32,000 nucleotides of DNA from Opitutia bacterium KCR 482 (GCA_029269845.2 CP149973.1:810001-842000); one strand, 5' to 3'; positions 3,487 to 31,654 are shown, counted from the stretch's first letter. Notes: a model not told the origin generated them from the sequence alone. Program-made: numbers and translations.

Positions 3487-5517
3487 ATGGATAACGAAAG
3501 CGAAAAACACGGTCATTCGTGCTGCTGCGGGCACAAGCACGAAGAGGAACTTCACAGCTGCTGCGGCGGACACGCCGCGGGCGGAATGCACTCGTGCTGC
3601 TCGGGCGGCGGAAAAAAATACGTTCCGACGTCCGTAAAGCTCTGGCTGTCGGGGCTGTCGCTCGTGGCGGGATTCGTTCTCTCGAAAACTTGGGCGGGAT
3701 TTTCGCCGCTCGCCGACCCGTCGTGGATTGCGGTGGCGCTTTGCGGACTGCCGATTTTCGCCGCGGCGCGAAACGCCCTCGAAAACGGAAGAATCGGCGC
3801 GCCGGCGCTCGTTTCGCTTGCGATGATTGCGACTATCGCGCTTCAATTCGCGGTCGAATGCGGCGCGGAATCGGGCGGAGGACACGGCGGGCACGGGTAC
3901 ATTTTTGCGGCGGGCGAAATCGCGTTTCTGATGGCGTGCGGAGAGGCTCTCGAAGAAAGAACGGTCGGACGCGCCAAGCGGGGGGTTCGCAGGCTCGCGG
4001 AGCTTGCGCCCAAAACCGCGTTCGTGAAAAATCCCGACGGCTCGCTTCGGGAAAAACCGATTTCGGAGCTGAGCGCGGGCGATATTGTGGCGGTCAAGCC
4101 GCACTCGGCAATCCCCGCCGACGGCACGATTGTTGTTGGGCGCACTTCCGTCGACCAGTCGAACTTCACGGGCGAATCAATGCCCGCCGACAAGGCGGAG
4201 GGCGACCGCGTGTTTGCCGCAACGACAAACCTTTCGGGCGCGATTGAAGTGCGAGTCGAAAAAGCGGGCGGCGACTCCGAAGCGGGAAAGCTTGCGCGGC
4301 TTGTCGAGGAGGCGGCGGGCACGCGCGCGCCGATTTCGCGCATCGCAAACGTCTGGGCGGGGCGGCTCGTGGTTGTGGCGCTGCTCGCGTCGGTCGCGGT
4401 ATTTTTCATCGTAAAATTCGGCTTCGGACTGTCGGCGATGACGGCTCTTGTGAGGTCGGCAACCGCGCTCGTTGTGTTCTGCCCGTGCGCGTTCGTGCTC
4501 GCGACGCCGACGGCGATTGCCGCAACCATCGGCAGGTTCGCAAGGCTCGGCGTAATCGTTAAAAGCGGCGCGGCGATAGAAACGCTCGCGAAAACCGACA
4601 CTCTCGTTTTCGACAAGACGGGCACGCTCACAAAGGGCGAAATCAAGGTGGCTGGAATCATAGCTTGCGACGGCGACGCACGCGCCCTCGCAAGGCTTGC
4701 CGCGTCCGCCGAACGGCTCTCGGAGCACCCCATTGCGGCGGCAATCTCCGAATTCGCTAGGGCGGAAAAAATCGAGGCTTTGCCCGCCGAAAATTTCGTG
4801 TCCGTTCCCGGTCGCGGGATTTCGTGCGAGACCGCCCTCGGAAAAATCGAAGTCTGCAAGCGCGGCGCGTTTGCGGGCGAAATAGAAGGCTCGAAAATAC
4901 TCTCGGATTTCGAAAAACAGCACGGCGGCGAAACGCTTGTAGCGGTCGCGCTCGACGGCAATTTGCGCGGGCTTATCGCGCTCGGCGACACGCTCAGAGG
5001 CGAGGCGAAAACCGCGGTAGACGAGTTGCGCGCGCTCTCCATTGACGCCGAAATGCTCACGGGCGACAACGAGGCCGCCGCAAAGGCTGTCGCCGATGCC
5101 GTAGGCATTGCGAAATTTTCGGCAAACGCCATGCCCGCCGACAAATTCAACGAGGTCGAACGCCTGGCAAAAAGCGGCAGGACCGTCTGCATGGTGGGCG
5201 ACGGCGTAAACGACGCCCCAGCCCTCGCCGCCGCAAACGCATCGGTTGCGATGGGGAAAATCGGCAACGACATGGCGGTCGAAAACGCCGACATCACACT
5301 GCTCTCCGACGGAATAGCCGAAATACCGCGCATTATCAAATTCTCGCGCAAAACAATGGCGGTTATCAAAACTAACATGGGCATTTCGCTCACGGTTAGC
5401 GCGCTCGCAATCACGGCCTCCGCTTTCGGTCTCCTCGACCCCGTCTCGGGCGCACTCCTCCACAACCTCTCCTCAATCTTCGTAGTCTCCAACTCCGCCA
5501 GACTGAGCGGACAATAA
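3487..5517 (+). CDS. P1B-type heavy-metal-translocating ATPase (metal specificity unresolved)
   Basis: DKTGTLT phosphorylation motif, CPC membrane metal site (VVFCPCAFVLATP), actuator TGES (FTGESMP), hinge GDGVNDAPAL. A Cys/His-rich N-terminal tail is present instead of an obvious HMA domain. Confidence 0.9.
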   Translation: MDNESEKHGHSCCCGHKHEEELHSCCGGHAAGGMHSCCSGGGKKYVPTSVKLWLSGLSLVAGFVLSKTWAGFSPLADPSWIAVALCGLPIFAAARNALENGRIGAPALVSLAMIATIALQFAVECGAESGGGHGGHGYIFAAGEIAFLMACGEALEERTVGRAKRGVRRLAELAPKTAFVKNPDGSLREKPISELSAGDIVAVKPHSAIPADGTIVVGRTSVDQSNFTGESMPADKAEGDRVFAATTNLSGAIEVRVEKAGGDSEAGKLARLVEEAAGTRAPISRIANVWAGRLVVVALLASVAVFFIVKFGFGLSAMTALVRSATALVVFCPCAFVLATPTAIAATIGRFARLGVIVKSGAAIETLAKTDTLVFDKTGTLTKGEIKVAGIIACDGDARALARLAASAERLSEHPIAAAISEFARAEKIEALPAENFVSVPGRGISCETALGKIEVCKRGAFAGEIEGSKILSDFEKQHGGETLVAVALDGNLRGLIALGDTLRGEAKTAVDELRALSIDAEMLTGDNEAAAKAVADAVGIAKFSANAMPADKFNEVERLAKSGRTVCMVGDGVNDAPALAAANASVAMGKIGNDMAVENADITLLSDGIAEIPRIIKFSRKTMAVIKTNMGISLTVSALAITASAFGLLDPVSGALLHNLSSIFVVSNSARLSGQ

Positions 5518-5548
5518 GGCGGGAGCAATATGCGACGCCTGGCGGAGC

Positions 5549-5641
5549 TTCGCTCATTTCTGCGATAATTCGGCGCGGCTACAACCGCGCCTTTTCTCTT
5601 TTAGCCCGTATTGGCTTCGCCAATTACTGGCGTTGGGAAAT
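5549..5641. repeat. Left copy of 93-bp imperfect direct repeat bracketing the phage-like cluster
   Basis: Aligns without indels to 13129-13221 (offset exactly 7580 bp), 82 of 93 positions identical by hand count. 5607-5641 is a perfect 35-nt match. Weaker similarity with indels continues to ~5690 / ~13296. Confidence 0.9.
5572..5597 (+). terminator. Terminator-like hairpin inside left repeat (downstream of ATPase gene)
   Basis: GGCGCGG (5572-5578) / CCGCGCC (5585-5591), 6-nt loop, followed by TTTTCT. Confidence 0.6.
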
Positions 5642-5737
5642 CTTTTAGTTTGGCGGGAAACAAATAGCGCGCATTGCGCGACGGAAATCGAAAAAGTATC
5701 AAAAAATGTAGTTTTATCAAAAGTTCCCAAAGTAAAT

Positions 5738-5766
5738 TTGCCGACGCGCCCTGTCCGTGATATTCT
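5738..5766 (+). promoter_or_regulatory. Candidate sigma70-like promoter upstream of portal gene
   Basis: TTGCCG (5738-5743), 17-nt spacer, TATTCT (5761-5766). This would give a nearly leaderless transcript (ATG at 5774). Weak match; promoter rules for this taxon are unknown. Confidence 0.2.
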
Positions 5767-5773
5767 GGGACGC

Positions 5774-6961
5774 ATGAATGCAAAAGGCAACAATCCCACG
5801 ATAAGTTCGCGCTTCCTGAGGGCGCGATTCAACACGATTAAAAACCTGCGCCCCGATACGCTCTCCCGCGCCCTCGAAGAATTCGAAGCCGGAAGGCTCG
5901 GAACGGCGGCTCGAATGTTCGAGGCAATTCTGCGCCGCGACGACGTAATTTGCGGGCTGAACCTCAAACGCAAAAAATCGATAGCGCGGCTCGAATGCGA
6001 AATCGTCGTAAGCGAAAATTCGCAGAGGGCGTTCGAGCACAAAAAGATTCTGTCCGACTTCTATTCGTCGCTCGAAGCAAGGAGCGCGACCGACAAAAAC
6101 GAGCGCGGCGGGCTTCGCATGCTCGTCTCGCAGATGATGGACGCTGTCGCGATGAAATACTCGGCGCACAAAATTTCGTTTTCCGAAAAGAACGGGAAAA
6201 TCCGCGGGGTGTTCGAGCAATACCCGCTCTGGCTCTTCGAAAACACGAGCGGCAAACTGAGGCTGCTCGAACGCGAGGGGCAGCTCGCCGACGGCGCGCC
6301 GCTCGACGAGGGCGAATGGCTCATCACCTGCGGCGACGGTCTGATGACGGCGTCGTCAATCGCATACATTTTCAAACAACTGCCGCTCAAAGACTGGCTC
6401 ATCTACTGCGAGCGCAACGGCATGCCGGGGATTAAGGCGAAAACCGACGCCTTCCCAGACTCGCCCCAGTGGGAGGCGGCGTGCGAGGCCGTCGCCGATT
6501 TCGGCGCGGAATTCCACGCTGTGCTTTCGGAGGGCACGGACATAGAGGCAATCGACGTTTCCACAAAGGGCGAGCTGCCCTACCCCGCGCTCGTCGAACG
6601 CGTAGACAGAATGCTCTGCGCCCTCTGGCGCGGCAGCGACCTCAACACAATCAGCGGCGACAACAGGCAGGGCGCGAGCGTGCAGTGGTACGAAAGCTCG
6701 CTCATAGAGGAGGCCGACGCCGCGCTTGTAGGCGACACGCTCAACCGCTGTGTGGACGCGCAGGTAATCAGGCTTGCGACGGGCGACGAAACGCCGCTTG
6801 CGAAATTCAGGCTGAAACTGCCCGACTACGAAATGCACAAGTGCGAGCTTGAAATCATCGAACGCCTCGCCGCCCTCGGACTCTCGCCCGACAAAACCGA
6901 ACTCGCGCGGAGGTTCGCATTCCCCGCTTCAAACAAAAAGGAATCCAATGAAATCGGATAG
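5774..6961 (+). CDS. Phage portal protein, DUF935 / Mu gp29-like
   Basis: Start moved to ATG 5774 (MNAKGNNPT...) because 5633-5773 overlaps the non-coding repeat that recurs at 13129-13296 without an ORF. The segment LRPDTLSRALEEFEAGRLGTAARMFEAILRRDDVICGLNLKRKKSI matches my recollection of the DUF935 portal N-terminus. Its 395 aa and first position in a capsid module agree. Confidence 0.7.
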   Translation: MNAKGNNPTISSRFLRARFNTIKNLRPDTLSRALEEFEAGRLGTAARMFEAILRRDDVICGLNLKRKKSIARLECEIVVSENSQRAFEHKKILSDFYSSLEARSATDKNERGGLRMLVSQMMDAVAMKYSAHKISFSEKNGKIRGVFEQYPLWLFENTSGKLRLLEREGQLADGAPLDEGEWLITCGDGLMTASSIAYIFKQLPLKDWLIYCERNGMPGIKAKTDAFPDSPQWEAACEAVADFGAEFHAVLSEGTDIEAIDVSTKGELPYPALVERVDRMLCALWRGSDLNTISGDNRQGASVQWYESSLIEEADAALVGDTLNRCVDAQVIRLATGDETPLAKFRLKLPDYEMHKCELEIIERLAALGLSPDKTELARRFAFPASNKKESNEIG

Positions 6962-7637
6962 GGAGCTTTTGCAGGTGCTTTGCCCCTTCGGAGAATGGCC
7001 GCACGCAAAGGGCATGCAGGTTGTCGACGAAGAGTCGGCGCGGAAAATGAAACGCGCGGCGGCTTGGAGCGCGGCGGTCGGCATTCCGATTTACGTCGGA
7101 CACCCCGACGACGAGGGAATCAGGGCGGAGGCGGTGGGGCGCATAAAGCGCATATGCCCGACAAACGACGGCATCGCGGTCGTGGCGGCGTACCCGCAAA
7201 AAACCTACGAGAAAATAGTGAGGGGAGAATTTTCGGCGATGTCGCCGCGCTGGCGAATGCAGAAGCTCGGCGACGGCAGATACCGCCCCGTGAAGCTCCT
7301 GTCGGTAGGTCTTACGAACAACCCGAACATTTCCGAAAGCGGAAAAATTCTCGGCTTCGGCGGGCGCGGTTTGGCGCAAACTGCCGAACGCTCCCGCGCG
7401 GCGATGGCGAAAATGGGAAAGCTCGCGGAGGAAATAGAAATCTGCGCGGAAAAGGCGGAGTCGCTCAGAAAAAGCGCGGCGGCGGCGACAATCTCGGAAC
7501 GGCTGGCGGCGCGGAAAAACGCCGACGAACGCCCCGAAAGGAGGCTTGCCGAACTTGCGCTCGAACGGTCGCGCAGACTCGGCGAGCCGTACACGAAAAG
7601 CTTTGCGGCGGTAAAAAAACAGAAACTCAACGGATAG
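6948..7637 (+). CDS. Head maturation protease/scaffold, Mu gpI-like
   Basis: Start at ATG 6948 with AAGGA 5 nt upstream, overlapping the portal stop by 14 nt. The N-terminus LQVLCPFGEWPHAKGMQVVDEESARKM...IPIYVGHPDD resembles Mu-like prophage protein I. The C-terminal third is an Ala/Glu/Arg/Lys-rich probable coiled coil, as in scaffold domains. Confidence 0.65.
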   Translation: MKSDRELLQVLCPFGEWPHAKGMQVVDEESARKMKRAAAWSAAVGIPIYVGHPDDEGIRAEAVGRIKRICPTNDGIAVVAAYPQKTYEKIVRGEFSAMSPRWRMQKLGDGRYRPVKLLSVGLTNNPNISESGKILGFGGRGLAQTAERSRAAMAKMGKLAEEIEICAEKAESLRKSAAAATISERLAARKNADERPERRLAELALERSRRLGEPYTKSFAAVKKQKLNG

Positions 7638-7677
7638 CACTAAAAATCCGTCCGCATAAAAAACAACAGGAAATAAT

Positions 7678-8373
7678 ATGACAGACAACAGACAAAAACT
7701 GTCCGCGCGGCTCGCAGAAGGCCTCCGCGCGGCGTTCGAACGCAAGCCCGCGTTCTGCAACATCGCAGACGGCACGCACGCAGGCTCGATTACAATGGTC
7801 GCGGAGGAATCCGTAGACAACGCGTACCTCGTGGTAAAGGCGGGCGCAAACGACGGCGGCTTCGCGGTTGCGGGCGCGGCGGACAAGCCTTTCGGAGTGT
7901 GCTCCGACGAGGGCGCAAAAGGCGAAAGGCTCGCGGTGATTCTGCCCGCAAGCGCGGAAAGCACAATCATGTGCCGCGCGGCGACCGACATTCCCGCGGG
8001 AGCAAGCGTATACACGTCGGCAAACGGCAAGGTTTCGGCGGCGGCGGCGGACGGCTCGTACAAAGTGGGCGTCGCGGTGTGCTCGGCGGTTTCCGGCGGG
8101 CTTGCGGAAATCGACCCGCAGGGCTTCGGCGAATCGGCGTGGAAGCTCGCCGCGTGCGGCGTGCACGAATGGACTACGGCGACAACTTCGGACTCCCTCG
8201 AATTTTCGGGGCTTAACTCCGACAGCGTTGTAATCGCCGCCGTTCAAAGCGCGGGAGGCTCGGAAAAGACGGTAAAGGCCGCGGCGTCTACGTCGGGCAT
8301 AAGCTTCACGCTCGACGCGAACGGCACGGCTGGCTCCACGAAAATCGCATGGATTGCAATAAGCAAAAACTAA
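7678..8373 (+). CDS. Head decoration / capsid-associated protein (DUF2190-like N-terminal domain plus C-terminal beta-rich domain)
   Basis: AGGA 8 nt upstream of the ATG. A Gly/Ala/Val-rich beta pattern (KPFGVCSDEGAKGERLAVILPASAESTIMCRAATDIPAGASVYTSANGKV) is typical of DUF2190 proteins found between protease and capsid genes. The extra ~95-aa C-terminal Ser/Thr/Ala-rich part is possibly Ig-like. Confidence 0.5.
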   Translation: MTDNRQKLSARLAEGLRAAFERKPAFCNIADGTHAGSITMVAEESVDNAYLVVKAGANDGGFAVAGAADKPFGVCSDEGAKGERLAVILPASAESTIMCRAATDIPAGASVYTSANGKVSAAAADGSYKVGVAVCSAVSGGLAEIDPQGFGESAWKLAACGVHEWTTATTSDSLEFSGLNSDSVVIAAVQSAGGSEKTVKAAASTSGISFTLDANGTAGSTKIAWIAISKN

Positions 8374-8377
8374 TATC

Positions 8378-9298
8378 ATGAACGAAAACATAATAAGCGC
8401 AAACGAAAATAAATTCACCGCGGGCAACTACTCGGAAGCCCTCACGGCGTTCACTACGGGCTGGGTCGACCCCGACAACATCTCGGCGATTCTCGACTTC
8501 ATCGCCCCGCCCGTCCCCGTCGGCAGACGCTTCGAATTCAAGCGCAGCGACAACGCACAGGCGTTCTTCTCGGAAAGCGACGACGTGCGCTCAATCGGCG
8601 CGGAGTTCAAGCGCGTCCGCTACGACGGCGAGTCGGTCAACGAAAAGACGCTCAACAAGGGGCTTACAATCCGCGTAGACCACGACGAAGCCGCGGGCGA
8701 CGACTGGCAGGAACGCTATGTGCAGATGCTGCTCCAACGCCTGCTCCGCAACGAGCTGCGCAGGGCGGTTGCAGCCCTCGACGCAATCGCCACGGCGCAG
8801 ACAAAGGCGGACTGGTCGGCGAGCGCAAACCCCGACGCCGACATTCGCGCAATGCTTTCCTCCGCCGCAGACCAGAGCGGAATCCGACCGAACAGGCTGC
8901 TGCTTGGCGAATCGGCGTGGGACAAGCGCATGACGTGCCTCGAATCGCAAAATTCGGCGGTTGCCTTCAAGGGCGCGGCGATGGCGCAGGACGAGCTTGC
9001 GGGCAAATTCCTGCTCGACGGCTGCCGCGTGCTGGCGTCGCGATTCCAGAGTTCCGACACCGCAAAATCGAAAATCCTCGGCAATACGGTCTACGCGTTC
9101 TACGCGCAGAACGCCGTTTCGAAGGACGAACCGTCGAACCTCAAACGCTTCTACACCCCCACGGAGGAGGGCTCGGCGTTCAGGGTTTACTGCGACGAAC
9201 ACGCAAAGTACACCGACATCACTGTCGAGCACTATTCAAGCATAGTGGCGGCGAGCGAGCTCGGCGTGCGCAAACTCGAAATCAAGGAAGGAGCGTAA
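8378..9298 (+). CDS. Major capsid protein (HK97-fold expected)
   Basis: 306 aa, sited directly after the protease and decoration genes (4-nt gap). Acidic/aromatic composition without TM or signal sequence, and followed by a strong intercistronic hairpin. Family (lambda E-like vs Mu T-like) not resolvable by eye. Confidence 0.6.
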   Translation: MNENIISANENKFTAGNYSEALTAFTTGWVDPDNISAILDFIAPPVPVGRRFEFKRSDNAQAFFSESDDVRSIGAEFKRVRYDGESVNEKTLNKGLTIRVDHDEAAGDDWQERYVQMLLQRLLRNELRRAVAALDAIATAQTKADWSASANPDADIRAMLSSAADQSGIRPNRLLLGESAWDKRMTCLESQNSAVAFKGAAMAQDELAGKFLLDGCRVLASRFQSSDTAKSKILGNTVYAFYAQNAVSKDEPSNLKRFYTPTEEGSAFRVYCDEHAKYTDITVEHYSSIVAASELGVRKLEIKEGA

Positions 9299-9300
9299 TA

Positions 9301-9338
9301 GGCGGCGCGACGGAGGCCTTCGGGCTTCCGCCGCGTCC
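9301..9338 (+). promoter_or_regulatory. Intercistronic GC-rich stem-loop (UUCG loop) just after the capsid gene
   Basis: GGCGGCGCGACGGAGGCC (9301-9318), TTCG loop (9319-9322), GGCTTCCGCCGCGTCC (9323-9338): about 14 pairs including 2 G-U plus internal and terminal mismatches. No T-tract follows. Confidence 0.45.
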
Positions 9339-9346
9339 ATGCGGTT

Positions 9347-9796
9347 ATGGAATGGATTAAAATTTTCCCCGAAGACCTCGAAGAGGCTCTAAACAAACCA
9401 CAGCTCGACACGCTCAAAGCCGAGGCGTTCAAGTCGCGCAAACGCGACATTTCGGTGGACATCATAGCGACGGTCATAGCGCGAATCAGGGTGGAAATCG
9501 CAACGAGCGGGCTGAACGCGCTCGACGCCGACCACTCTAAAATTCCGCCCGAGCTCAAAGACTGCGCGTTGCGGCTTGCGGTGGAATCGCTCCACCTGCG
9601 CGTGCCGTCGATTGAAATTTCAGACATGCAGAAGAAGCACGCCGACATCGCCCGCGAAACGCTTGCAAGAATCGCGCGGGGCGAGCTTGTGGTGTCGCGA
9701 CCGCTCGACGGCGTAAAAACCGTGCGTCCCCGACGCGGCGTATCGGCGGCTTCGGCGGCGAGAAACGCAAGCCGCAAAACAATGGAGGGCATTTAA
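9347..9796 (+). CDS. Head-tail adaptor / head completion protein (DUF1320, Mu gp36-like)
   Basis: 149 aa, first gene after the capsid gene. Helical pattern with a conserved-looking C-terminal ARETLARIARGEL segment, similar to DUF1320 adaptor proteins. Assignment rests on position plus weak motif recollection. Confidence 0.45.
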   Translation: MEWIKIFPEDLEEALNKPQLDTLKAEAFKSRKRDISVDIIATVIARIRVEIATSGLNALDADHSKIPPELKDCALRLAVESLHLRVPSIEISDMQKKHADIARETLARIARGELVVSRPLDGVKTVRPRRGVSAASAARNASRKTMEGI

Positions 9797-9797
9797 A

Positions 9798-10205
9798 ATG
9801 GGAACGCTCGAAAGCCTGCAAAATTCGATTTACGAACGCCTGCGCGGCGCGTCCGACCTGCGCCTTGCCGACATCAAAAAGGAGGGCGCGGACGACGACG
9901 GCGGAAAGGCGAACGGACTCCGAATAACAGTGGGAAGGCCGCTGCCGAAAACCGCGTCGAAATACGCGGCAGGCCCGACATTTTCGGAGGTGGAGCTGCG
10001 CGTGGAAGTTTCGCGCGCCGACCCGATAGCCGCAAACGCGCCGTCGCTGCTTTCCGCCGCCGAAACCGTATCGAAATCGCTTCACAACTGGACGCCGCCG
10101 CTGGCGTGCGGATACGGGCGCATGACCCTTGCGCCGCAGTATCCGTGGATTTCCAAGGACGGGAAAATCTCGATAATCCTCAACGCGCAATCGGTTTTGC
10201 AATGA
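9798..10205 (+). CDS. Putative neck / head-tail joining protein
   Basis: 135 aa, 1-nt gap from the upstream gene and an ATGA overlap with the downstream gene. The N-terminal LESLQNSIYERLRG pattern resembles small phage head-tail joining proteins. No firm family. Confidence 0.35.
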   Translation: MGTLESLQNSIYERLRGASDLRLADIKKEGADDDGGKANGLRITVGRPLPKTASKYAAGPTFSEVELRVEVSRADPIAANAPSLLSAAETVSKSLHNWTPPLACGYGRMTLAPQYPWISKDGKISIILNAQSVLQ

Positions 10206-10588
10206 AAATAAAATTCGCCGACACAAACCTTGCGAACGACGGAGAGTTCCCGAAATCGCTTTCGCTCGAAACGTGCAGACGCTCGCAGACGGAATACACT
10301 ATCGACGCCGACGAGGCCAAAATTTTCGACAGGGGCAACACAAAAACTACCCTCGCGTTCGAAATCGAACGCGCCCACGGAAGCGAAGCCGACGCCGAAA
10401 AATTCGCGGTCGGGCACGCCTCCGAAATCGCCGCGCTCTCGCCCGCCGCGCTCGTTTTCGAACACGCAGACGGCTCGAAAACGACATTCGAAAACGCGGT
10501 GGTTTCGAAAATCAAAACCGAATACGAAAAACTTGTATCAAATACCCGCTACGAATTTTCGGCGGGCAAACCAAAGGAGCAACAATGA
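10202..10588 (+). CDS. Hypothetical phage structural protein (128 aa)
   Basis: Start at ATG 10202 (ATGA overlap with the upstream stop). Beta-rich, acidic, no TM. Could be a tube/distal-tail-like protein by size and position only. Confidence 0.4.
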   Translation: MKIKFADTNLANDGEFPKSLSLETCRRSQTEYTIDADEAKIFDRGNTKTTLAFEIERAHGSEADAEKFAVGHASEIAALSPAALVFEHADGSKTTFENAVVSKIKTEYEKLVSNTRYEFSAGKPKEQQ

Positions 10589-10734
10589 CAATCGACGACA
10601 TCGAACGCGAAATGCGCACGGAACTCGACAGGCTCGAATCGAAAATCGACGAGCTTGAAAAAACCGTGGCGCAGCTGAAATCCGACATCGAGGAAAGCCT
10701 CGAACAAATGAAAAAACTCAAAGGCGAAGTATAG
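10585..10734 (+). CDS. Small coiled-coil protein (49 aa)
   Basis: ATG 10585 with AAAGGAG 6 nt upstream and an ATGA overlap with the upstream stop. Heptad-like sequence MTIDDIEREMRTELDRLESKIDELEKTVAQLKSDIEESLEQMKKLKGEV. Confidence 0.5.
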   Translation: MTIDDIEREMRTELDRLESKIDELEKTVAQLKSDIEESLEQMKKLKGEV

Positions 10735-10735
10735 A

Positions 10736-12454
10736 ATGAACGTCGTTTTCAGGATAAACTCGGCGGCGGTAGACGCCGCAAAATTCCCGGTGTGCGCGGC
10801 GAAAATCCTCCGCAAAACGTCGTCGGCAGACGAGCTTAGAATCACGCTCGCGCCCGACGCGCAGACCGTGCCCGACATCGACGACACAATCGAGGTTTTC
10901 GTCGGAAGCACGCGCAAATTTTTCGGACGCATCACGAAAATCCCCAAACGGCGCGCGGCGGAAAAAACGGCGTCGGAAATCGTCGCAAAAAGTCCGTGGA
11001 GGGACTTGGAGGAAACCGTCTACCAGCAGTACTGGAAACGCGCCGTCGGCGGAGAATCGGCAAGCGTGCTCCGAAGCAGAGTCGCGCTCGGACAAAACGC
11101 CGCGGGCGGGAAAATCAAGGTCTCGGAGCAAATCAGAGAAATCGCGCTCTACGCGGCGTCGTGCGGAGCGCAGCTCGCCGTCGGCACAATAGACACAGAC
11201 TCCGACATGCTGCTTGACGAAGCCCGCGACATCTCCTGCGCCCAGGCAATAGCGCGTACCCTCAAATGGGCGCCGAATTCCGTGGCGTACTTCGACTACG
11301 CGACGGACGGCTACCCCAAGCTCGAAGTCCGAAAACGCCCCGCCCTGCCGTCGGAGACAATAGATATTTCGAAGAAAACCACGCTCTCGGCAAGCGTCGC
11401 CGAGCGTCCCGACCTGCGCGTAGATTGCGTTTCCGTAAAGTACGAGCAGGAAAACGAAGTGGACGGCGAAACGTGGCTCGCGGTCTCCGAGGAAAAATAC
11501 CCGCAGGACGCGCAGTCGAACTCGCGCCGCGCAATCGTGATGACGGTCGATTTGGACGGCGCGAAATCGTCGTCTTCGACATATAAAATCGTCTGCGGAA
11601 CGGTGCAGCCAAACAGCGTGCAGTGGTGGCGAAAGCATGTGCCGTCGCTCGCGGACGAATCGGACATGACGGTTGTCGAATCGGCGCGTGAAACGCCGAC
11701 ATACGCGCGGGAGCTGCTCGTAGGCTCGATTGTAGCGGGAATGAACTTCCAAACGCTCTCCGACCGCATTACGGCGAAAGTAAAATACACAACAGACGAC
11801 GGAAGCATTGTCACAAAAAACGTCGCAGCAAACATTCTTTCGACAAACGCAGTCAGCGGAACGTACACAATCTGGAAGACGTCGCAGTTCGCGGAGGAAA
11901 AGCCGTCGGGACTTGCGGAAGCCGTCTACAAAGCCGTTTCCGACGCGCAGTACGAAGGCTCGGTTAAGATTCTCGGCGCGCTCGAAAAGAGCTTTCTCGG
12001 CAAACGCATCGGCATTTCGGATTCGAAAAATCCCGACTGGGCGGACATAGGAGCGACGGTCGTGCAGACCGAGGAAAACCTCGCCGACGGCACGACGCTC
12101 GTAAAATTCGGCCCGCCCAAACACCTCTACCCCGACAACATGGAGGAGCTTTTCAGAATCAACCGAAACCGAACCGTAAGCTCCGACATATCGACGCGCA
12201 CGACGGGCAAAATTTCGGGGAAATCCGACGAGCCTACGCAGACGAAAGCCGAAATCAACGGCGGCGAAGGCGACGCGGTTTTCGACAAATTCGTGATTGG
12301 CGCAAGCGGCGGCGAACAACCCGACGGAATCGAGCTCGACCCAGCCGACCTCGACGACGGCGAGCTTGCGAAAATGCGCGAAATCTACATCTGCCACAAC
12401 GGCTACCTTGCAACCGCAAAAGTACTCATGAGCGAACCCAAATACGTAGAATAA
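10736..12454 (+). CDS. Large phage structural protein, possible tail hub / tip protein (572 aa)
   Basis: 1-nt gap from the upstream gene. The N-terminal pattern (ELRITLAPD...IEVFVGSTRKFFGRITKI) is reminiscent of gpD/gp27-like hub N-domains. No enzymatic motif seen. Functional call is positional and tentative. Confidence 0.4.
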   Translation: MNVVFRINSAAVDAAKFPVCAAKILRKTSSADELRITLAPDAQTVPDIDDTIEVFVGSTRKFFGRITKIPKRRAAEKTASEIVAKSPWRDLEETVYQQYWKRAVGGESASVLRSRVALGQNAAGGKIKVSEQIREIALYAASCGAQLAVGTIDTDSDMLLDEARDISCAQAIARTLKWAPNSVAYFDYATDGYPKLEVRKRPALPSETIDISKKTTLSASVAERPDLRVDCVSVKYEQENEVDGETWLAVSEEKYPQDAQSNSRRAIVMTVDLDGAKSSSSTYKIVCGTVQPNSVQWWRKHVPSLADESDMTVVESARETPTYARELLVGSIVAGMNFQTLSDRITAKVKYTTDDGSIVTKNVAANILSTNAVSGTYTIWKTSQFAEEKPSGLAEAVYKAVSDAQYEGSVKILGALEKSFLGKRIGISDSKNPDWADIGATVVQTEENLADGTTLVKFGPPKHLYPDNMEELFRINRNRTVSSDISTRTTGKISGKSDEPTQTKAEINGGEGDAVFDKFVIGASGGEQPDGIELDPADLDDGELAKMREIYICHNGYLATAKVLMSEPKYVE

Positions 12455-12456
12455 AC

Positions 12457-13080
12457 ATGCAAGCGTTTACACACCTTTCCCCGATTCCCTACCCGACGAC
12501 GGAAGTTCTGCCGGGCGGCGGGCTTGCAATCGGCCCGATGACGCCGCAGGAGTGCGTGGAGTTTTTCTGGCTGACATCGGAAGTGTCGCTCGACTTCTCG
12601 GTGCGCGTGTTCGAGCAGCACGCAAAAAGCGGCGACGTGCTCGTTGACATAACAAAAGCGGCGCATGCGGACAATTTCTGCTCGGCGACAATGCCGTTTT
12701 CGCTCGAACCCCGTGCGCGCTGCACGGCGTCGGGCAAAACGCTGTGCGACATATTCCTGCCCGACGGCGGACTCGACTTCCAAATTTCCGGCCCGTACGT
12801 CGATGCACACTACCCGCAAGAAATATCATTTGCAAGCAAATCATACTACTATAAACTTGCATTCCATTTCGGCGCAGGCTCGCTGGAAATCGATACAAAC
12901 TACTCGACAAATACCGGCCCTGCCTACATGACAACCGTAAAAAGATTCCCGTTTACAATATTCGATAAAACCTACTATTTGAACCTCAACGTGCCCGACA
13001 TGTACCTAAACCCCGCCCAATACGAACTAAACGTCTCATACAGCGCCGACATCTCATTAAGCAGGCAAAGCGCAGGCTAG
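12457..13080 (+). CDS. Hypothetical protein, last gene of cluster (207 aa; possible receptor-binding/tip protein)
   Basis: 2-nt gap from the upstream gene. Aromatic/beta-rich C-terminal half (YYYKLAFHFGAGSLEIDTNYSTNTGPAYMTTVKRFPFTIF). No recognisable family. Followed by three hairpins. Confidence 0.4.
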   Translation: MQAFTHLSPIPYPTTEVLPGGGLAIGPMTPQECVEFFWLTSEVSLDFSVRVFEQHAKSGDVLVDITKAAHADNFCSATMPFSLEPRARCTASGKTLCDIFLPDGGLDFQISGPYVDAHYPQEISFASKSYYYKLAFHFGAGSLEIDTNYSTNTGPAYMTTVKRFPFTIFDKTYYLNLNVPDMYLNPAQYELNVSYSADISLSRQSAG

Positions 13081-13128
13081 CAGCAGGCTGCAGCCTGCAC
13101 GGGCGCGAGCCGCGCCGGTCGTCGGAAC

Positions 13129-13221
13129 TTCGTTCCTTTCTGTGATAACTCGGCGCGGCTATAACCGCGCCTTTTCTGGATAAGTTCGTATTGGCTTCGC
13201 CAATTACTGGCGTTGGGAAAT
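13129..13221. repeat. Right copy of 93-bp imperfect direct repeat
   Basis: See left copy. The perfect 35-nt core is 13187-13221 (CGTATTGGCTTCGCCAATTACTGGCGTTGGGAAAT). Confidence 0.9.
13152..13177 (+). terminator. Terminator-like hairpin inside right repeat (end of phage-like operon)
   Basis: GGCGCGG (13152-13158) / CCGCGCC (13165-13171) then TTTTCT. Preceded by two further GC hairpins (13083-13098, 13102-13116). Confidence 0.6.
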
Positions 13222-13280
13222 GCTTAACGCAGAAAAGAAACTAATTTAAATAGACGCGCTATGCGCGGATAAAAAGAAAA

Positions 13281-13315
13281 GCGGAAATCCCGAATCTCGG
13301 AATTTCCGCTTTTTT
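13281..13315 (+). terminator. Strong rho-independent terminator in non-coding region
   Basis: 13-nt arms GCGGAAATCCCGA / TCGGAATTTCCGC (12 pairs, 1 mismatch), 3-nt loop, then TTTTTT (13310-13315). Confidence 0.75.
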
Positions 13316-13317
13316 GT

Positions 13318-13640
13318 AAAACCAACTTTTATCCCAACACACTCTAAAAATCTTCCGCGCCGTGCGCTCACTATTTAGGCGCGTCAAAGTGCTAGTATAA
13401 GGGCGGCTTTACGCGCGAAACAGGGCGCGTAGCATACACGGCTATCCGCAAACATTAGTCGGCTCACAAACCAAACAACTCCACTTTTCTCCCAGCGCAT
13501 TCTAAAAAACTTTGTGCGTTAGCACTCATTTGTTAGGGGTGTTAGAGTGCCGTTCAGGCGGTGGCTTTCACGCATGCGCAGGGCGCGTGGCGTACTTTTG
13601 TACGCGAGCGGTCTGCGCATGCGGGGAAACGCCGCATCAA
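13318..13640. repeat. Two degenerate tandem non-coding units (~158 bp period)
   Basis: Unit 1 from ~13325 (ACTTTTATCCCAACACACTCTAAAAA...) and unit 2 from ~13483 (ACTTTTCTCCCAGCGCATTCTAAAAAA...) align at roughly 60-65% identity. Blocks GGCTTT(C)ACGC..CAGGGCGCGT.GC.TAC are shared and hairpin positions are conserved. Boundaries are approximate. Confidence 0.55.
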
Positions 13641-13658
13641 CGGTGCTATAACACCCCG

Positions 13659-15143
13659 TCAGCGGTTGCGTTTCCTGTGCTTTTTGGTTTCTTCCACGAG
13701 GATTGGCTCGTTTCTGTACGCAAAGCCCTCCAACTTTCTGCGCTCGATTTTCGCGTTTATAAATTCCTCTATTCTTTTCAGGAACATAGTTTCGTCGGAG
13801 GAGTAAAGCGTGATTGCCGTGCCGTCCTTGTTCGCCCTGCCCGTTCGCCCGATTCTGTGGACATAGTCCTCCGCGTGTTCGGGAACGTTGTAGTTTATGA
13901 CGTACTGGACATCGTTGATGTCAAGCCCGCGCGAGGCGATGTCGGTTGCGACAAGTATGTTGGTCTTGCGCTCCTTGAAATCGGCGAGAGCCTTGTCGCG
14001 TTCGCGCTGGGTGCGGTCGGAGTGGAGAATCGACACTTTGTAGTCGTGCCCGACGAGCCATTCGCCGATTCTGTCGGCGTCGATTCGCGTGCGGGTGAAA
14101 ACTATGAGCGAGTCGAAAGTTATCGATTTAAGATATTCTATCAGTAAATCGTATTTTTGAATTCCGTCAACGGGATAGACGAAGTGCTCGATTGTATCGG
14201 CGGGGCTGTTTTGGGCAATGCCCGTGTCGAGCCTCTGCGGGTCGGTCAACGCCCATTTGGACAGGCGCATTACGGCGTCGGGCATTGTTGCCGAAAAGAA
14301 GAGCGTCTGGCGTTCCTTGGGGCAGTACCTGATGATGTTGGAAACGTCTTCGATGAAGCCCATGTCGAACATGCGGTCAACCTCGTCGAGCACAAGGTAC
14401 TTTATGTTTTTGAGCGAAATTGCGCGGTTGCGGTTGAGGTCGAGAAGCCTTCCGGGGGTGGCGACCACGACGTCCACGCCGCTTTTGAGCGCGGCAATCT
14501 GGCGTTCCATCGAGACGCCGCCCTGAACGAGGAGCGTTTCGATAGGCGAATATTTCGAGAAATTTTTGAACGCCTCGGCGGTCTGCGAGGCAAGCTCGCG
14601 AGTGGGGCTTAACACAAGCACGCGCGGCTCGAACTGCGATTCGCCGAGCTTGTCGACGAGCGGAAGCGCGAACGCCGCCGTTTTGCCCGTGCCCGTCTGC
14701 GCCGTGCCGATTACGTCCGCGCCAGAAAGGACAATCGGGACTGCCTTTGACTGAATCGGCGTGGGCGACGCGTAGCCCATGTCCTTGACGGCGGAGAGAA
14801 CCGCGGGGGAAAGACCGAGCGCGGCGAAGTCGGGAAGCGACGCCGAAAGCTCGTCCTGCGGATAGGGGGCGGGAACGTTTTTGGGAGCGCGTTTTTGCGC
14901 GGGGACATTCTGCACGTCCAAGCCTTTTTTGCCCGACTCGCGGCGCGGACGGCGACCCTCCCTGCGGCGGTCGTCGGGGCGGCGGGCGGCGTTTGCGGGG
15001 GCATTTTTGGGGCGCGGCGCGGCGGAATTTTTCTTTCGGGCGCCGCCCTGCTGTTTCCCCGCCTTGCGCGGCTCTGACTCATTTTTGGAAAAAACCTTTT
15101 TTCCGAGAGATACGATTTTCTTAAATAAATTCATGAAAGCCAA
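13659..15143 (-). CDS. DEAD-box ATP-dependent RNA helicase with basic N-terminal extension
   Basis: GYASPTPIQ (Q-motif region), AQTGTGKT (Walker A), DEVD (motif II), SAT, HRIGRTGR. The first ~105 aa are Arg/Lys/Pro-rich low complexity. Confidence 0.9.
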   Translation of the reverse strand: MAFMNLFKKIVSLGKKVFSKNESEPRKAGKQQGGARKKNSAAPRPKNAPANAARRPDDRRREGRRPRRESGKKGLDVQNVPAQKRAPKNVPAPYPQDELSASLPDFAALGLSPAVLSAVKDMGYASPTPIQSKAVPIVLSGADVIGTAQTGTGKTAAFALPLVDKLGESQFEPRVLVLSPTRELASQTAEAFKNFSKYSPIETLLVQGGVSMERQIAALKSGVDVVVATPGRLLDLNRNRAISLKNIKYLVLDEVDRMFDMGFIEDVSNIIRYCPKERQTLFFSATMPDAVMRLSKWALTDPQRLDTGIAQNSPADTIEHFVYPVDGIQKYDLLIEYLKSITFDSLIVFTRTRIDADRIGEWLVGHDYKVSILHSDRTQRERDKALADFKERKTNILVATDIASRGLDINDVQYVINYNVPEHAEDYVHRIGRTGRANKDGTAITLYSSDETMFLKRIEEFINAKIERRKLEGFAYRNEPILVEETKKHRKRNR

Positions 15144-16933: not shown

Positions 16934-17895
16934 TGGTCGAAACCGCCCGCCGAAAACGGCTCGCGGCGGTTTTGCGAAACGACAAACACGGCGTCTTCCC
17001 CGTCTGCGGGATTCGCCGTTTTTATTTGCCCCATGACGTAGAACGGCTCGCCGAAACGCGCTTCGTAGACGCGCGAAAACGCGCTAAGCTCGGACGCCGC
17101 GCCGGAGAAAGTGAAGAGAAGCTCGTAGTCTTCGCCGTCGCAAAGAGCCTGTTTTAGTGTCGCGGTTTTGCCGCAGTACTCCCTGCGGGGGACGGCGCTT
17201 TCGGACAGCTCGGCGCAAGTTCCGCGCGGAAGGAGGTTGCGGAGGTCGGACGCCGCGCCGTCGCTCAAATCGGTGCACGCCGAAACGCGCGGCTCGGCGG
17301 CGAGGAACACGCCCTGCTCAACGCGCGGCTCGAAAGCCAAATGGTGCCCGCTTTCGAACGACGCGCCTAACGCGCCGCTTACGCAAATGTAGTCGCCCGC
17401 CGACGCTCCGACGCGCAAAAGCGTGCGTCCGTCGGTCTGCCCCAAGAGGGTAAGGTGGGTCGAGAAGAAGTCGCCGCCGACCGACGCGAAATCGCCGCCT
17501 ATTATTTTCAGCCCGTACTTTTCCGCGGCAACGCCCATGCCCCCGCAAAAACCGTCGAGCCATTCGACCGACACGTTTGGCGAGCATATCGAGCTTGCAA
17601 GCGCGGCGAACGGACGCGCCCCCATTGCGGCGATGTCGCTTACGTTGCGCTTCACGAGCTTTGCGCCCGCGAGTTCGGGCGGGGTGTCGGGAGAAAAGTG
17701 CCTGCCCAAAATGACGGCGTCGCTTGTAAGCAGGACGTTTTTTTTCAGGGACTGCGAAAGCACGAGGGCGCAGTCGTCGCCCGCCCCGAATGGGGGCGGC
17801 AAATCGGCTGCCGCGCCGAATTTTGCGCACACGCGCGAAATCAGGCGTTTTTCGCCCAAGCCGCCGACCGTTCCGACTGTCGCAAAAGGTTTCAT
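16921..17895 (-). CDS. thiL: Thiamine-monophosphate kinase
   Basis: Start set at ATG 17895 (MKPFATVG...), ATGA overlap with the upstream CPBP stop. Motifs GAGDDCALV, LLTSDAVILGRHF and NVSDIAAMGARP fit ThiL. The ORF-track extension to 18426 overlaps the CPBP gene out of frame and is not credible. Confidence 0.85.
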   Translation of the reverse strand: MKPFATVGTVGGLGEKRLISRVCAKFGAAADLPPPFGAGDDCALVLSQSLKKNVLLTSDAVILGRHFSPDTPPELAGAKLVKRNVSDIAAMGARPFAALASSICSPNVSVEWLDGFCGGMGVAAEKYGLKIIGGDFASVGGDFFSTHLTLLGQTDGRTLLRVGASAGDYICVSGALGASFESGHHLAFEPRVEQGVFLAAEPRVSACTDLSDGAASDLRNLLPRGTCAELSESAVPRREYCGKTATLKQALCDGEDYELLFTFSGAASELSAFSRVYEARFGEPFYVMGQIKTANPADGEDAVFVVSQNRREPFSAGGFDHYQP

Positions 17896-19944: not shown

Positions 19945-20901
19945 TTACCGGTTTGTGCGGTGCATGCAAAGGTTCATGACGGCCATTCTGACCGCGACGC
20001 CGTTGGTGACCTGCGTGAGGATAACGGAGCGGTCGGAGTCCGCAAGCGGCGTGTCAAGCTCCACTCCCCTGTTAATCGGACCGGGGTGCATGATGAACGC
20101 GCCCTTTTTGAGGAGGTTTTCGCGGCGCAGGTTCAGCCCGAAAACGTTGGCGTATTCGGAGACCGACGGGAAGTGCGTCGCGCTCTGGCGTTCGTGCTGA
20201 ATGCGAAGAAGCATCACGACATCGGCGTCGGCGACAGCCTCGGCAAGGTCGCAGCAGACGCGCACGCCTAGCTTTTCGAACTCGCGCGGGACGAGCGTCG
20301 ATGGTCCCGCAAGGGTCACCTCCGCGCCGAGCTTTTGGAGCAGATAGATGTTCGACCGCGCAACGCGGCTGAAAAGAATGTCGCCCAAAATCGTTATTTT
20401 TTTGCCCTTGAAGTTTCCGCCGAATTTTTCGCGCATGGTGAACGCGTCGAGCAAAGCCTGCGTTGGGTGCGCGTGCGCGCCGTCGCCCGCGTTGATTACG
20501 GGAATTTTCACCCTGTCGGCAAGGTACTTCGCCGCGCCCGACGAGCTGTGGCGCACGATAATCATATCCGCCATCAGAGCCTCTATGTTGCGGGCGGTAT
20601 CTTTGAGCGTCTCGCCCTTGACCGACGACGAAATGTTCGACGCCACGCTTATGACGTCCGCGCCGAGCTTGTGCGCCGCCATTTCGAAAGCGGTGCGGGT
20701 GCGGGTGCTCGGCTCGAAAAAGAGGTTCACCACAACCCGGCCTTTCAGGTAGGGAAGCTTTGCCTTGTCGCTTTTGAGCGACGCCTTGAAAACGTCCGCC
20801 ATTGCGAAAATTTTGCCGATTTCGTCGAGGGTAAGGTCTTCGGTCGAAATCAAATCTTTGCGCGACCACGAAAGGTCCTTCATAAAATCTTTTGCTTTCA
20901 T
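19945..20901 (-). CDS. pyrB: Aspartate carbamoyltransferase catalytic subunit
   Basis: EPSTRTRTAFE (STRTR), HPTQALLD and IMHPGPINRG motifs. 318 aa, directly upstream of pyrC. Confidence 0.92.
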   Translation of the reverse strand: MKAKDFMKDLSWSRKDLISTEDLTLDEIGKIFAMADVFKASLKSDKAKLPYLKGRVVVNLFFEPSTRTRTAFEMAAHKLGADVISVASNISSSVKGETLKDTARNIEALMADMIIVRHSSSGAAKYLADRVKIPVINAGDGAHAHPTQALLDAFTMREKFGGNFKGKKITILGDILFSRVARSNIYLLQKLGAEVTLAGPSTLVPREFEKLGVRVCCDLAEAVADADVVMLLRIQHERQSATHFPSVSEYANVFGLNLRRENLLKKGAFIMHPGPINRGVELDTPLADSDRSVILTQVTNGVAVRMAVMNLCMHRTNR

Positions 20902-26652: not shown

Positions 26653-26907
26653 CTAACCCTTGCAAACTTTGCAGGCAACACCCTCGTCTTTCGAGCAGGG
26701 TCGCCCCTTGCACTTGTAATAACGGCAAGACGAGTTATGCCGCTTGCCCGTTTTAGACAGCCAATAGCCGGTTTCCTTCTGCGCGGTTTGCCCGGAAGGC
26801 GGATAGGCGGCTTTGTCATTTTCCGCCGCTTCGACAAACGAAACAAAGAAGACCGAAACCGCCGAAAATAAAACCAAAAATATAAAACGCAAAAATCCTT
26901 TATTCAT
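26653..26907 (-). CDS. Small secreted/membrane-anchored Cys-rich protein (84 aa)
   Basis: Hydrophobic N-terminus FLRFIFLVLFSAVSVFFVSFVEA, then YWLSKTGKRHNSSCRYYKCKGRPCSKDEGVACKVCKG. As I recall, the YW..(S/T)GKRHNSSCRYY...C..C(G/K)G tail matches a widespread small-protein family (annotated in some databases as the sunset domain). Function unknown. Confidence 0.6.
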   Translation of the reverse strand: MNKGFLRFIFLVLFSAVSVFFVSFVEAAENDKAAYPPSGQTAQKETGYWLSKTGKRHNSSCRYYKCKGRPCSKDEGVACKVCKG

Positions 26908-26981
26908 AGTAAAGCAATCCTAATATTTTGAAATAAACAAGCAATAAAAAACACACAAATCACGCAAACATTTGTTATGTT

Positions 26982-28070: not shown

Positions 28071-28332
28071 TTTTCGACGCCCTTTTTCTTTTCGATTTTT
28101 CGCTCAGCACTTCTTCAATCGAAGAATATTCGCGCTTCGTGAAGAGATTTTTTATATCGCCCGCAAGGTCGAAAAACTTGGCGATTTCAACCAACTTGCG
28201 GAAAGAAATCTCGCCCGTAGTTTCAAATCGCCTGTATGTCGGCAACGCAATCCCGACACGCAATGCAAAATCTTTCTGCGAAATATTCCGCGCCAACCTC
28301 ATTGCGCGAACATTCCCCGCCACCGCCTTCAT
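28063..28332 (-). CDS. hipB: XRE-family helix-turn-helix antitoxin (HipB-like)
   Basis: MKAVAGNVRAMRLARNISQKDFALRVGIALPTYRRFE is a typical XRE HTH. Start set at ATG 28332 rather than 28425 because 28371-28422 holds two AT-rich palindromes better read as operators. Overlaps the hipA start. Confidence 0.75.
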   Translation of the reverse strand: MKAVAGNVRAMRLARNISQKDFALRVGIALPTYRRFETTGEISFRKLVEIAKFFDLAGDIKNLFTKREYSSIEEVLSEKSKRKRASKNG

Positions 28333-28370
28333 AATCTCCGAAGCCGTCGCGTTTCTATTACGCACAACAG

Positions 28371-28422
28371 ATAATATATTATTACTCACTTGCCTATTAC
28401 GCTGTAAATAACAATATATTAT
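28371..28422. promoter_or_regulatory. Pair of AT-rich palindromes upstream of hipBA (candidate operators)
   Basis: ATAATATATTAT (28371-28382, perfect 12-nt palindrome) and ACAATATATTAT (28411-28422, 11/12 identical), centres 40 bp apart. On the coding strand they flank TTTACA-N18-TAATAA. Confidence 0.45.
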
Positions 28423-28469
28423 CAATAAAATGCCAAGAGAATTTGTATATAAAGAGCTTTATAATTCAA

Positions 28470-29117: not shown

Positions 29118-29368
29118 ATTTTATCCGTTTTTATTGTTCTAATTTTATGCACTTTCCTGCTCTTCCATATCGCTATTGTCTGTCCACATTTCGCACTGAG
29201 CAATAACGGTATATAGGGCTTATTTCCGCGCAACGTATTCGCCGCACGACATATATCCTACATTAGGAACAAATAGAACATGTGTAATTACGAGCAACTT
29301 GCGTAATTTTTTCCCAGTGGTAAGGCAATCCCTTACCATTTCGCTTTTTTGACAGGAAAGGAGTTTGC

Positions 29369-30529: not shown

Positions 30530-30533
30530 CTCG

Positions 30534-31619: not shown

Positions 31620-31654
31620 TTCATGTCGATTTTTTTAAAAAAATCGACATGAAT
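31619..31654. terminator. 36-bp perfect palindrome immediately after the Fic stop (probable bidirectional terminator)
   Basis: ATTCATGTCGATTTTTTT / AAAAAAATCGACATGAAT: 18-nt arms with no spacer, and T/A runs at the centre. It starts at the last base of the TAA stop. Confidence 0.55.

Follow-up and report, generated by a model that had tools for sequence, protein, structure and literature searches.

What is encoded by a block of phage head and tail genes that lies between housekeeping genes in the chromosome of Opitutia bacterium KCR 482, a gut member of the Opitutales (Verrucomicrobiota), with no terminase or integrase gene beside it? The window (the whole stretch of DNA that was analyzed, 32,000 nucleotides of GCA_029269845.2, CP149973.1:810001–842000, numbered from its first letter) carries this block at 5549–13221, and an initial annotation offered three explanations for it: a domesticated, particle-forming locus resembling a gene transfer agent (GTA) with its packaging enzyme encoded elsewhere, a satellite or cis-mobilisable element, and a decaying prophage remnant. 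The first of these has fared best. The interval is probably the structural operon of a two-operon, phage-derived, domesticated GTA-like particle system that is chromosomally fixed in at least 31 species; the gene order is kept in those species, the genes are under purifying selection and diverge along with other chromosomal genes, and the large terminase (TerL) is encoded on the same scaffold.

Products of the ten-gene cluster

The cluster, its putative promoter and the repeats that flank it in this species are laid out as follows (window positions, strand, feature):

5520–5641, +, left copy of a three-hairpin repeat (covariance-model match 5542–5632, 107.8 bits) with the ATPase terminator hairpin at 5572–5591
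5694–5773, +, putative head-operon promoter region: motif CCAAAGTAAATTTG at 5727–5740 with a −35-like TTTGC inside it, and −10-like GATATTCT at 5759–5766
5774–6961, +, g1, portal of the Mu type, 395 aa (Portal_Mu PF06074, DUF935, E 5.3e-54; PHROG 113)
6948–7637, +, g2, head maturation protease/scaffold, Mu gpI-like, 229 aa (PF10123, Mu-like_Pro; PHROG 328, 5e-9)
7678–8373, +, g3, tentative cement/decoration or scaffold-like protein, 231 aa (PF09956, DUF2190; PHROG 673 "head scaffolding", 1e-7)
8378–9298, +, g4, major capsid protein, 306 aa (PHROG 1005 "major head protein", 7e-12; PDB 3bjq profile match, 0.015)
9347–9796, +, g5, probable head-tail adaptor, DUF1320/Mu gp36-like, 149 aa (PHROG 195, 0.0057; top PDB profile match 8rka, DUF1320, E 0.21)
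9798–10205, +, g6, putative neck protein, 135 aa (kept in 27 loci)
10202–10588, +, g7, predicted tail-tube-fold protein, 128 aa (AlphaFold2 pLDDT 97, Foldseek)
10585–10734, +, g8, coiled-coil protein in the tape-measure position, 49 aa
10736–12454, +, g9, predicted tail hub/central spike similar to gp27-gp5, VgrG and Mu gp44, 572 aa (AlphaFold2 pLDDT 82.7, Foldseek)
12457–13080, +, g10, putative tip protein, 207 aa (positional ortholog)
13100–13221, +, right copy of the three-hairpin repeat (covariance-model match 13122–13212, 111.8 bits) with the operon terminator hairpin at 13152–13171

The ten same-strand open reading frames (ORFs; 5774–13080, +) were called independently as the same ten genes in 10 other assemblies, with the 14-nt overlap of the portal and protease genes and the ATGA overlaps at 10202 (g6/g7) and 10585 (g7/g8) that had been annotated here. 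Gaps of 1–4 nt were reported for the rest; this is true of four junctions, but g2 and g3 are 40 nt apart and g4 and g5 48 nt apart. The G+C content of the cluster (0.55–0.62) matches that of its flanks, so the description of its composition as host-like holds. The left neighbor is a P-type ATPase gene, whose terminator hairpin does precede the portal gene as initially noted, and the right neighbor is a DEAD-box helicase gene on the opposite strand; the remaining window genes are of the housekeeping kind, except for a low-GC island that begins at about 26.9 kb.

The head genes are laid out like the head module of Mu- and B3-like phages, with the PF06074 portal, the gpI-like PF10123 protease and the DUF2190-like and DUF1320-like proteins in the same order. 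Among the parts named in the initial annotation the portal, protease (30.1 bits for PF10123; cut-off 25.2) and capsid are confirmed, the DUF2190 protein is borderline (23.8 bits for PF09956, just under the cut-off of 24), and the DUF1320 match of g5, a gene kept in 32 loci, is weak. The capsid protein is 55–87% identical across species and gave no tblastn match in 50,697 cultured-phage records. The g6 protein, which has no Pfam, PHROG or PDB profile match, would by its position serve in head closure or as a tail terminator. PDB sequence-profile searches with g5, g6, g7, g9 and g10 returned nothing significant.

The last four genes had been listed as unknowns and are now partly resolved. The model of g7, built with 79 homologs collected by an exhaustive HMMER search, is a tail-tube fold; its Foldseek matches are the neck/tube protein of phage 812, the tube of siphophage R4C, the tubes of the antifeeding prophage (AFP) and Photorhabdus virulence cassette (PVC), λ gpV and Hcp (E 1e-4 to 4e-3). 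The model of g9 is a hub/spike fold, matched by the central spikes of PVC, AFP and other extracellular contractile injection systems (eCIS), by Mu gp44 (1wru), MuSo2 (3cdd), VgrG1 and siphophage Tal (E 7e-15 to 1e-7); the g9 family is small, with 29 clusters in 5.8 billion proteins. A tube-fold protein and a gp27-like hub, as in a siphovirus-type tail tip, are thus both predicted. Between them, a coiled-coil ORF of 49–56 aa is found in all 29 loci checked, and this g8 family has a conserved C-terminal motif similar to LK(S/N)LKS. Its PHROG tape-measure match (0.0011) is one among many coiled-coil matches, and the phage contig L045 from IMG/VR has a 628-aa tape measure immediately before its g9 homolog; g8 is a candidate minimal tape measure. 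Downstream of g9 nearly all loci have an ORF of 180–228 aa with the same N-terminal motif; this protein, g10, has no Pfam, PHROG or PDB match and would from its position form the distal tip or bind a receptor. As predicted from these sequences and models, the operon would make a head, a neck and a very short non-contractile tail tip composed of tube (g7), coiled coil (g8), hub (g9) and tip (g10). No sheath or baseplate-wedge gene was matched among the window proteins scanned against Pfam and PHROG.

The possibility that a terminase hides among g7–g10, which would have overturned the initial annotation, is ruled out by the fold assignments and by the absence of Pfam and PHROG terminase matches. 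In two phage-like contigs of IMG/VR, L045 and L048, genes distantly similar to g7 and g9 are separated by about 8 kb that encode a full-length tape measure and large fiber-like proteins; the tail genes may descend from an ancestor related to these phages.

The large terminase operon and the shared promoter motif

The description of the cluster as terminase-less was a window-edge effect. No terminase gene lies inside the repeats or anywhere in the window, but an intact TerL operon lies just outside, 12.5–13.5 kb upstream on the same scaffold. Sought elsewhere in the genome, as the initial annotation had proposed, TerL was found as protein P0156 (449 aa), a member of the 90%-identity cluster that a search with the TerL of the closest other species (L012–L014) returned, encoded at 237,753–239,102 of ERZ28573323 scaffold_2, a 560-kb scaffold on which the head operon occupies about 216.9–224.2 kb; two fetched segments that carry the operons, L058 (227,753–249,102) and L004 (210,675–231,595, reverse), overlap and so link them. 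The TerL operon is upstream on the opposite strand, its start 12.5 kb and the TerL start 13.5 kb from the portal start codon, and it lies about 6.7–9.1 kb ahead of the first base of the window. Read in the orientation of the window, the genes are cupin, HU, TerL, m132, m86 and m135 (all −), then 3-keto hydrolase, seryl-tRNA synthetase, SRP54, glycoside hydrolase family 5 (GH5), an MGH1-like glycoside hydrolase, a 129-aa gene, an FAD oxidoreductase and the ATPase (all +), then the portal gene through g10 (+) and the DEAD-box helicase (−); eight housekeeping genes separate the two operons.

TerL matches Terminase_6N/6C in Pfam and is a gp28-type protein, 52–53% identical to the TerL of phage B3 and other B3-like transposable phages. 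It keeps the motifs KSRQIGMS and VLDE, which we read as putative Walker A and Walker B, and has acidic residues in its nuclease domain. Three small genes precede it in the operon:

TerL operon, −, m135: 135 aa, N-terminal transmembrane segment followed by a coiled coil (PHROG E 0.003)
TerL operon, −, m86: 86 aa, no informative match
TerL operon, −, m132: 132 aa, lysine-rich N-terminus

An intact TerL is kept in all lineages examined, in three arrangements. It lies immediately upstream of the portal gene in three metagenome-assembled genomes (MAGs) of Puniceicoccales (L031, L034 and L039), in the IMG/VR contig L047 and in the complete genome of Rubellicoccus peritrichatus (L063). L012–L014, the nearest of the other species, have a TerL operon divergent from the head operon, with one 3-keto-disaccharide hydrolase gene between the two. 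In four other lineages the TerL operon is at a separate locus and followed by the HU gene, with cupin and ApbE genes also adjoining. Of the five candidate TerL proteins looked up (P0036, P0044, P0048, P0035 and P0046) none was tied to this species; HU adjoins in four, and cupin and ApbE genes are close.

The contiguous arrangement bears on the idea that this is a functional, unconventional temperate phage with its other genes scattered or beyond the sequence seen. The versions in L031, L034, L039 and L047 do resemble a normal phage morphogenesis module, TerL is close to that of B3-like transposable phages, and the genome inspected here amounts to about 50 kb. We consider such a phage very improbable, as eight housekeeping genes stand between the operons in this species and the operons are at unlinked loci in others, while even contiguous versions have housekeeping flanks (PlsY, a PilT-like ATPase and RluA in L034; RlmN and folate-synthesis genes in L063), and neither a transposase, a repressor nor a lysis cassette was seen. 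Within 10–20 kb of either operon, in the roughly 50 kb visible, there are no replication, integration or immunity genes; no integrase or replication gene lies beside the operons in any locus whose flanks were scanned, and the window ORFs scanned have no match to Phage_Mu_F or a transposase.

Two of the contiguous loci have peculiarities of their own. In R. peritrichatus, a cultured marine relative (CP136920; L063, 10001–15867), TerL, portal, protease, cement, capsid and adaptor genes are contiguous, folate-synthesis genes follow directly after the adaptor, and the tube, hub and tip genes are absent at the locus, which suggests further splitting or loss of the tail part. In L031 the g10-like ORF is followed by a gene (11866–13509) whose 547-aa product contains, unusually for bacteria, a ubiquitin C-terminal hydrolase domain of the eukaryotic type (PF00443, 1.5e-29).

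The two operons appear to share a promoter. The DNA upstream of the portal gene is conserved in species whose g9 proteins are only 40–60% identical, and can be aligned with the sequence that precedes the TerL operon. Its core, C[AC]AAAGT-N3-TTTG, occurs once in the window (5727–5740; 0.03 expected) and 50 times in 1.04 Mb of fetched loci (about 1 expected from base frequencies), and 46 of these 50 matches are at the starts of portal or TerL operons. A −10-like ATAnnnT usually follows, and in nearly every locus the predicted ATG is 45–48 nt downstream. In the window the portal ATG is 7 nt past the −10-like box, so that the head-operon transcript would be leaderless or nearly so. This pattern points to a dedicated common regulator for both operons. 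The motif is absent from the marine Rubellicoccus locus (L063) and would therefore be confined to the gut clade. The only other exact matches are at 4218–4231 (+) in L052 and L053, 856–869 (−) in L054 and 9057–9070 (+) in L040; two of these sites precede uncharacterized genes, for proteins of 512 aa and 102 aa, which may also belong to the regulon.

Distribution, selection and the flanking repeat

In a scan of one genome per GTDB species, 31 species carry the cluster, all of them Opitutales/Puniceicoccales and, where a source is stated, mostly from animal guts. Locus L018 is from the isolate Puniceicoccaceae bacterium Marseille-Q1082 and L040 from the isolate Intestinicryptomonas porci Cla-KB-P66. 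The ten-gene order is kept in all 31 loci, at identities to the window proteins that run from 86–87% (capsid, nearest species) down to 30–32% (g9, most distant). The flanking genes found in the window recur beside the cluster in none of the other species; 12–14 species share another context, in which galK-galE-UDPGP precede the cluster and a LysM/TPR gene (−) and purH (−) follow it. Pairwise divergence of the cluster proteins correlates with that of purH, UDPGP and galE (rho 0.3–0.84, with p-values inflated by the non-independence of the pairs).

"Opitutia bacterium UBA4654" (L011) has the same cluster, with protein identities of 92–100%. The identical capsid protein is present in 439 index blocks of the assembly collection, and in all ten strains read out of those 439 blocks the same chromosomal site is occupied. 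An exact-sequence look-up of the window ATPase protein, aimed at an empty site, returned no record.

Within the species, purifying selection acts on each of the ten genes. The ratio of non-synonymous to synonymous substitution rates (dN/dS), pooled over comparisons of the window with L001–L011, is 0–0.35 for the ten genes (0.06 for g1 and 0.07 for g6) and 0.03–0.14 for the flanking genes; dS is similar inside and outside the cluster, and the capsid gene has 0 non-synonymous and 78 synonymous differences among strains. These figures make it improbable that the cluster is a defective prophage remnant without current function, kept by chance or by hitch-hiking, and the ten-gene order (intact in the 31 species even where g9 has fallen to 30–60% identity), the promoter motif conserved at both operons across species and the conserved length of g8 tell against it as well. 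What a remnant would explain is the absence of lysis, replication and integration genes nearby, together with interrupted or partly matched genes at two loci, namely the portal gene in L012 (~4990–6172) and the capsid gene and g6 in L021 (~7543–9284). The second operon is less informative on this point; its strain diversity is too low to measure selection well, with 3 non-synonymous and 9 synonymous differences in TerL and 8 and 2, respectively, in m132.

The cluster had also been called repeat-bounded. A direct repeat is indeed present (5520–5641 and 13100–13221; 122 nt, 82% identical, the last 35 nt exact), but it is a dispersed element that is absent at the cluster borders in most other species and does not indicate mobility. 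The element is intergenic and about 91 nt long, with three hairpins, of which one is a terminator stem; seven base pairs covary, and the alleles of different strains show compensatory changes within the hairpins. The covariance model finds three copies in this species, one behind the ATPase gene, one behind g10 and a third (L058 8444–8534, −) that separates the 3-keto hydrolase gene from the TerL operon. It also finds three in L012 (12391–12481, after g10, and 17386–17476 and 20524–20617, 5 and 8 kb downstream) and one in L014 (12396–12486, after g10). It finds none in other species, and Rfam gave no match. The repeat is a lineage-restricted, dispersed, terminator-associated element. Since the same element lies 3′ of g10 in L012 and L014, the copy on the g10 side appears to be native to the 3′ end of the operon. 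Similarity of the two flanks runs about 55 nt past the repeat into a GC-rich hairpin, and the homology of L011 to the window begins right after the left repeat; the arrangement would be compatible with a move of the operon, in this species, through recombination between copies of the element.

Repeats that resembled attachment (att) sites had suggested a phage satellite or cis-mobilisable island, similar to the capsid-forming phage-inducible chromosomal islands (PICIs), that takes its recombinase and perhaps its tails from a helper phage. The flanking 122-nt repeat, the point at which L011 homology begins, a cluster site that differs from that of most relatives and the binning of some relatives as viral in IMG/VR would all suit such an element, and so would the compact capsid gene set without a full phage genome, which capsid-forming PICIs also have. 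Its probability is nevertheless very small. The repeat is dispersed, with its third copy near the TerL operon and with further L012 copies 5 and 8 kb from the cluster, and 12 other species have no repeats flanking the cluster; these observations and the hairpin covariation rule the repeat out as an att site. One common site is occupied in all ten strains read and the chromosomal neighborhood is conserved across species, whereas satellites have strain-variable presence, att sites, an integrase and replication genes. There is no integrase, primase or regulator in or beside the cluster (the sole integrase of the window, at 29369–30529, is 16 kb away), and the system owns its TerL, tail tube and hub.

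Other features lie near these borders or farther along the window. Some strains (L001, L002, L007 and L008, 14705–14830) have GC-rich palindromic repeats, for example GGGGGAGTGGGTGGTGAATTTCGCAAAGCGAAATCCACCCCTGGGGGCG, inserted after g10, and two copies of the same repeats are upstream of the TerL operon (L058 8555–8860); they look like repetitive extragenic palindromic (REP) elements or miniature inverted-repeat transposable elements (MITEs). Between g10 and the start of the helicase gene, at 13250–13660, a unit of about 190 nt (CTTTTATCCCAACACACTCTAAAAATCTTCCGCG...GGGCGCGTAGCATAC) is present in one to three tandem copies depending on the strain (about 14900–15430 in L001–L010); this would be the helicase 5′ leader or promoter region. 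A strong 17-bp hairpin lies at 13277–13313 in the same interval. The low-GC island (26900–32000; 31–47% against about 58% GC) holds genes for a HipA-like kinase, a T5orf172/MUG113 protein, the tyrosine integrase and a Fic/SoFic protein, and is a separate mobile or defense island unrelated to the cluster.

Proposed function and relation to known systems

In the proposed course of events, one dedicated factor would switch on both operons through the shared promoter; procapsids with a small, decorated head of the Mu type (portal, protease/scaffold, cement and capsid) would assemble; the headful-type TerL would fill them with DNA; and the neck (g5 and g6) and a stubby tube/hub tail would be added and the particles released. 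Their cargo would most likely be host DNA, as it is in gene transfer agents, and would be delivered to recipient cells. As the two operons are split by eight housekeeping genes, with no replication, integration or immunity genes alongside, such particles should be unable to propagate as a phage.

Chromosomal residence, vertical inheritance and purifying selection were all found here. In these respects the system is like the GTA of Rhodobacter capsulatus (RcGTA) and other GTAs (BaGTA, VSH-1, Dd1, VTA and the Caulobacter GTA), whose head-tail genes came from a phage, are a fixed part of the chromosome, are conserved throughout a clade of hosts, evolve under purifying selection and have no integrase, replication or immunity genes next to them. 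RcGTA has accessory loci as well, controlled by shared regulators, and the distribution of genes over more than one locus under common control, which the shared motif suggests here, would be a further likeness. Siphophage R4C, whose tube is among the best matches of g7, is presumably a relative of RcGTA. Homology to the RcGTA head-tail proteins was not found: NCBIfam, which includes GTA-specific models, gave in release 20 zero matches of any kind for TerL and the nine cluster proteins other than g8, and Pfam gives Mu-type families. Unlike the known GTAs, this system has a portal, protease and TerL of Mu/B3-type ancestry, a terminase gene split from the portal into an operon of its own, and a tail cut down to tube, 49-aa coiled coil, hub and tip.

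Mu-like phages are characterized by a terminase gene upstream of the portal gene, gpF, the transposase genes A and B, a repressor and a contractile tail. The system shares with them and with B3-like phages, besides the head module and TerL type, a hub with the predicted Mu gp44 fold. Unlike them it has no transposase, repressor, gpF, sheath, baseplate-wedge or lysis genes, its TerL gene is 13.5 kb from the portal gene on the other strand instead of adjacent, and it is inherited with the chromosome instead of transposing.

The only serious rival to a GTA-like role is a domesticated particle with another function, either a killer like PBSX or a device that delivers protein or DNA to competitors or host cells through its VgrG-like spike, with packaging incidental or vestigial. 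PBSX-like defective prophages are phage-like bacteriocins that package host DNA. PBSX is a chromosomally fixed, non-propagating particle with head, terminase and tail (PMC7667829), a gene set of the kind found here, and it provides the precedent of a GTA-like particle that kills instead of transferring DNA (PMC7667829). The best structural matches of g9 are eCIS central spikes and VgrG, the tail is minimal, and the conservation and selection data fit any beneficial function. We nevertheless regard a non-transfer function as unlikely, on the grounds that every lineage examined has kept an intact, apparently co-regulated headful-type terminase, a sign that DNA packaging matters, and that no toxin, effector or sheath gene is in or adjoining either operon. 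With tailocins and eCIS only the spike fold is shared; here there are a capsid, a portal and a terminase, and neither a sheath nor a baseplate wedge was found. The PBSX genes for their part form one contiguous cluster of myovirus type that includes those for a contractile tail, lysis and regulation, whereas this system has two operons, no sheath and no recognized lysis genes.

Several points weigh against the interpretation of the cluster as half of a GTA-like system. Particle formation, DNA content, transfer and lysis are what we infer from the genes. About 50 kb of the genome are visible, and a full prophage backbone could sit elsewhere, though both operons are embedded in housekeeping genes; a large enough head could package the system's own ~10 kb of genes. 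No lysis genes were recognized in the visible ~50 kb, and m135 as a lysis protein is a guess from its PHROG match; m132 is by position a candidate small terminase. The interruptions in L012 and L021 could be MAG assembly errors or local decay, and the inflated p-values of the divergence correlations count here too. Finally, the shared promoter could be merely a strong promoter of the housekeeping type, although the motif is nearly absent elsewhere in the 1 Mb of fetched sequence.

With the terminase found, the locus remains a well-supported candidate for a GTA-like system of independent origin, whose split architecture is unusual and whose tail is minimal. A more specific proposal, which we hold tentatively and at somewhat less than even chances, is that a GTA was domesticated independently in the Verrucomicrobiota from a Mu/B3-like phage, with a two-operon regulon, a dedicated promoter and a very short tail (49-aa tape measure and VgrG-like tip), and that it moves chromosomal DNA from cell to cell in the gut. 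Only a handful of independent GTA lineages are known, their hosts being Rhodobacterales, Desulfovibrio, Brachyspira, Bartonella, Caulobacter and Methanococcus, with no Verrucomicrobium and none of the Verrucomicrobiota among them (PMC12946183). Our literature searches turned up no report of a GTA or a comparable element in Opitutales or Verrucomicrobia.

For genome scans the lesson of this locus is that a core gene that seems to be missing can sit just past the edge of the window. The putative two-operon regulon with its sharply defined promoter motif, the Mu-type headful terminase and the minimal tail are testable handles, and the compact tail of tube, 49-aa coiled coil and hub would be a model for the determination of tail length. 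The host is common in human-gut metagenomes, and at least 30 related species, including two isolates in culture, also have the system. Each known GTA lineage has changed the view of horizontal transfer in its host group.

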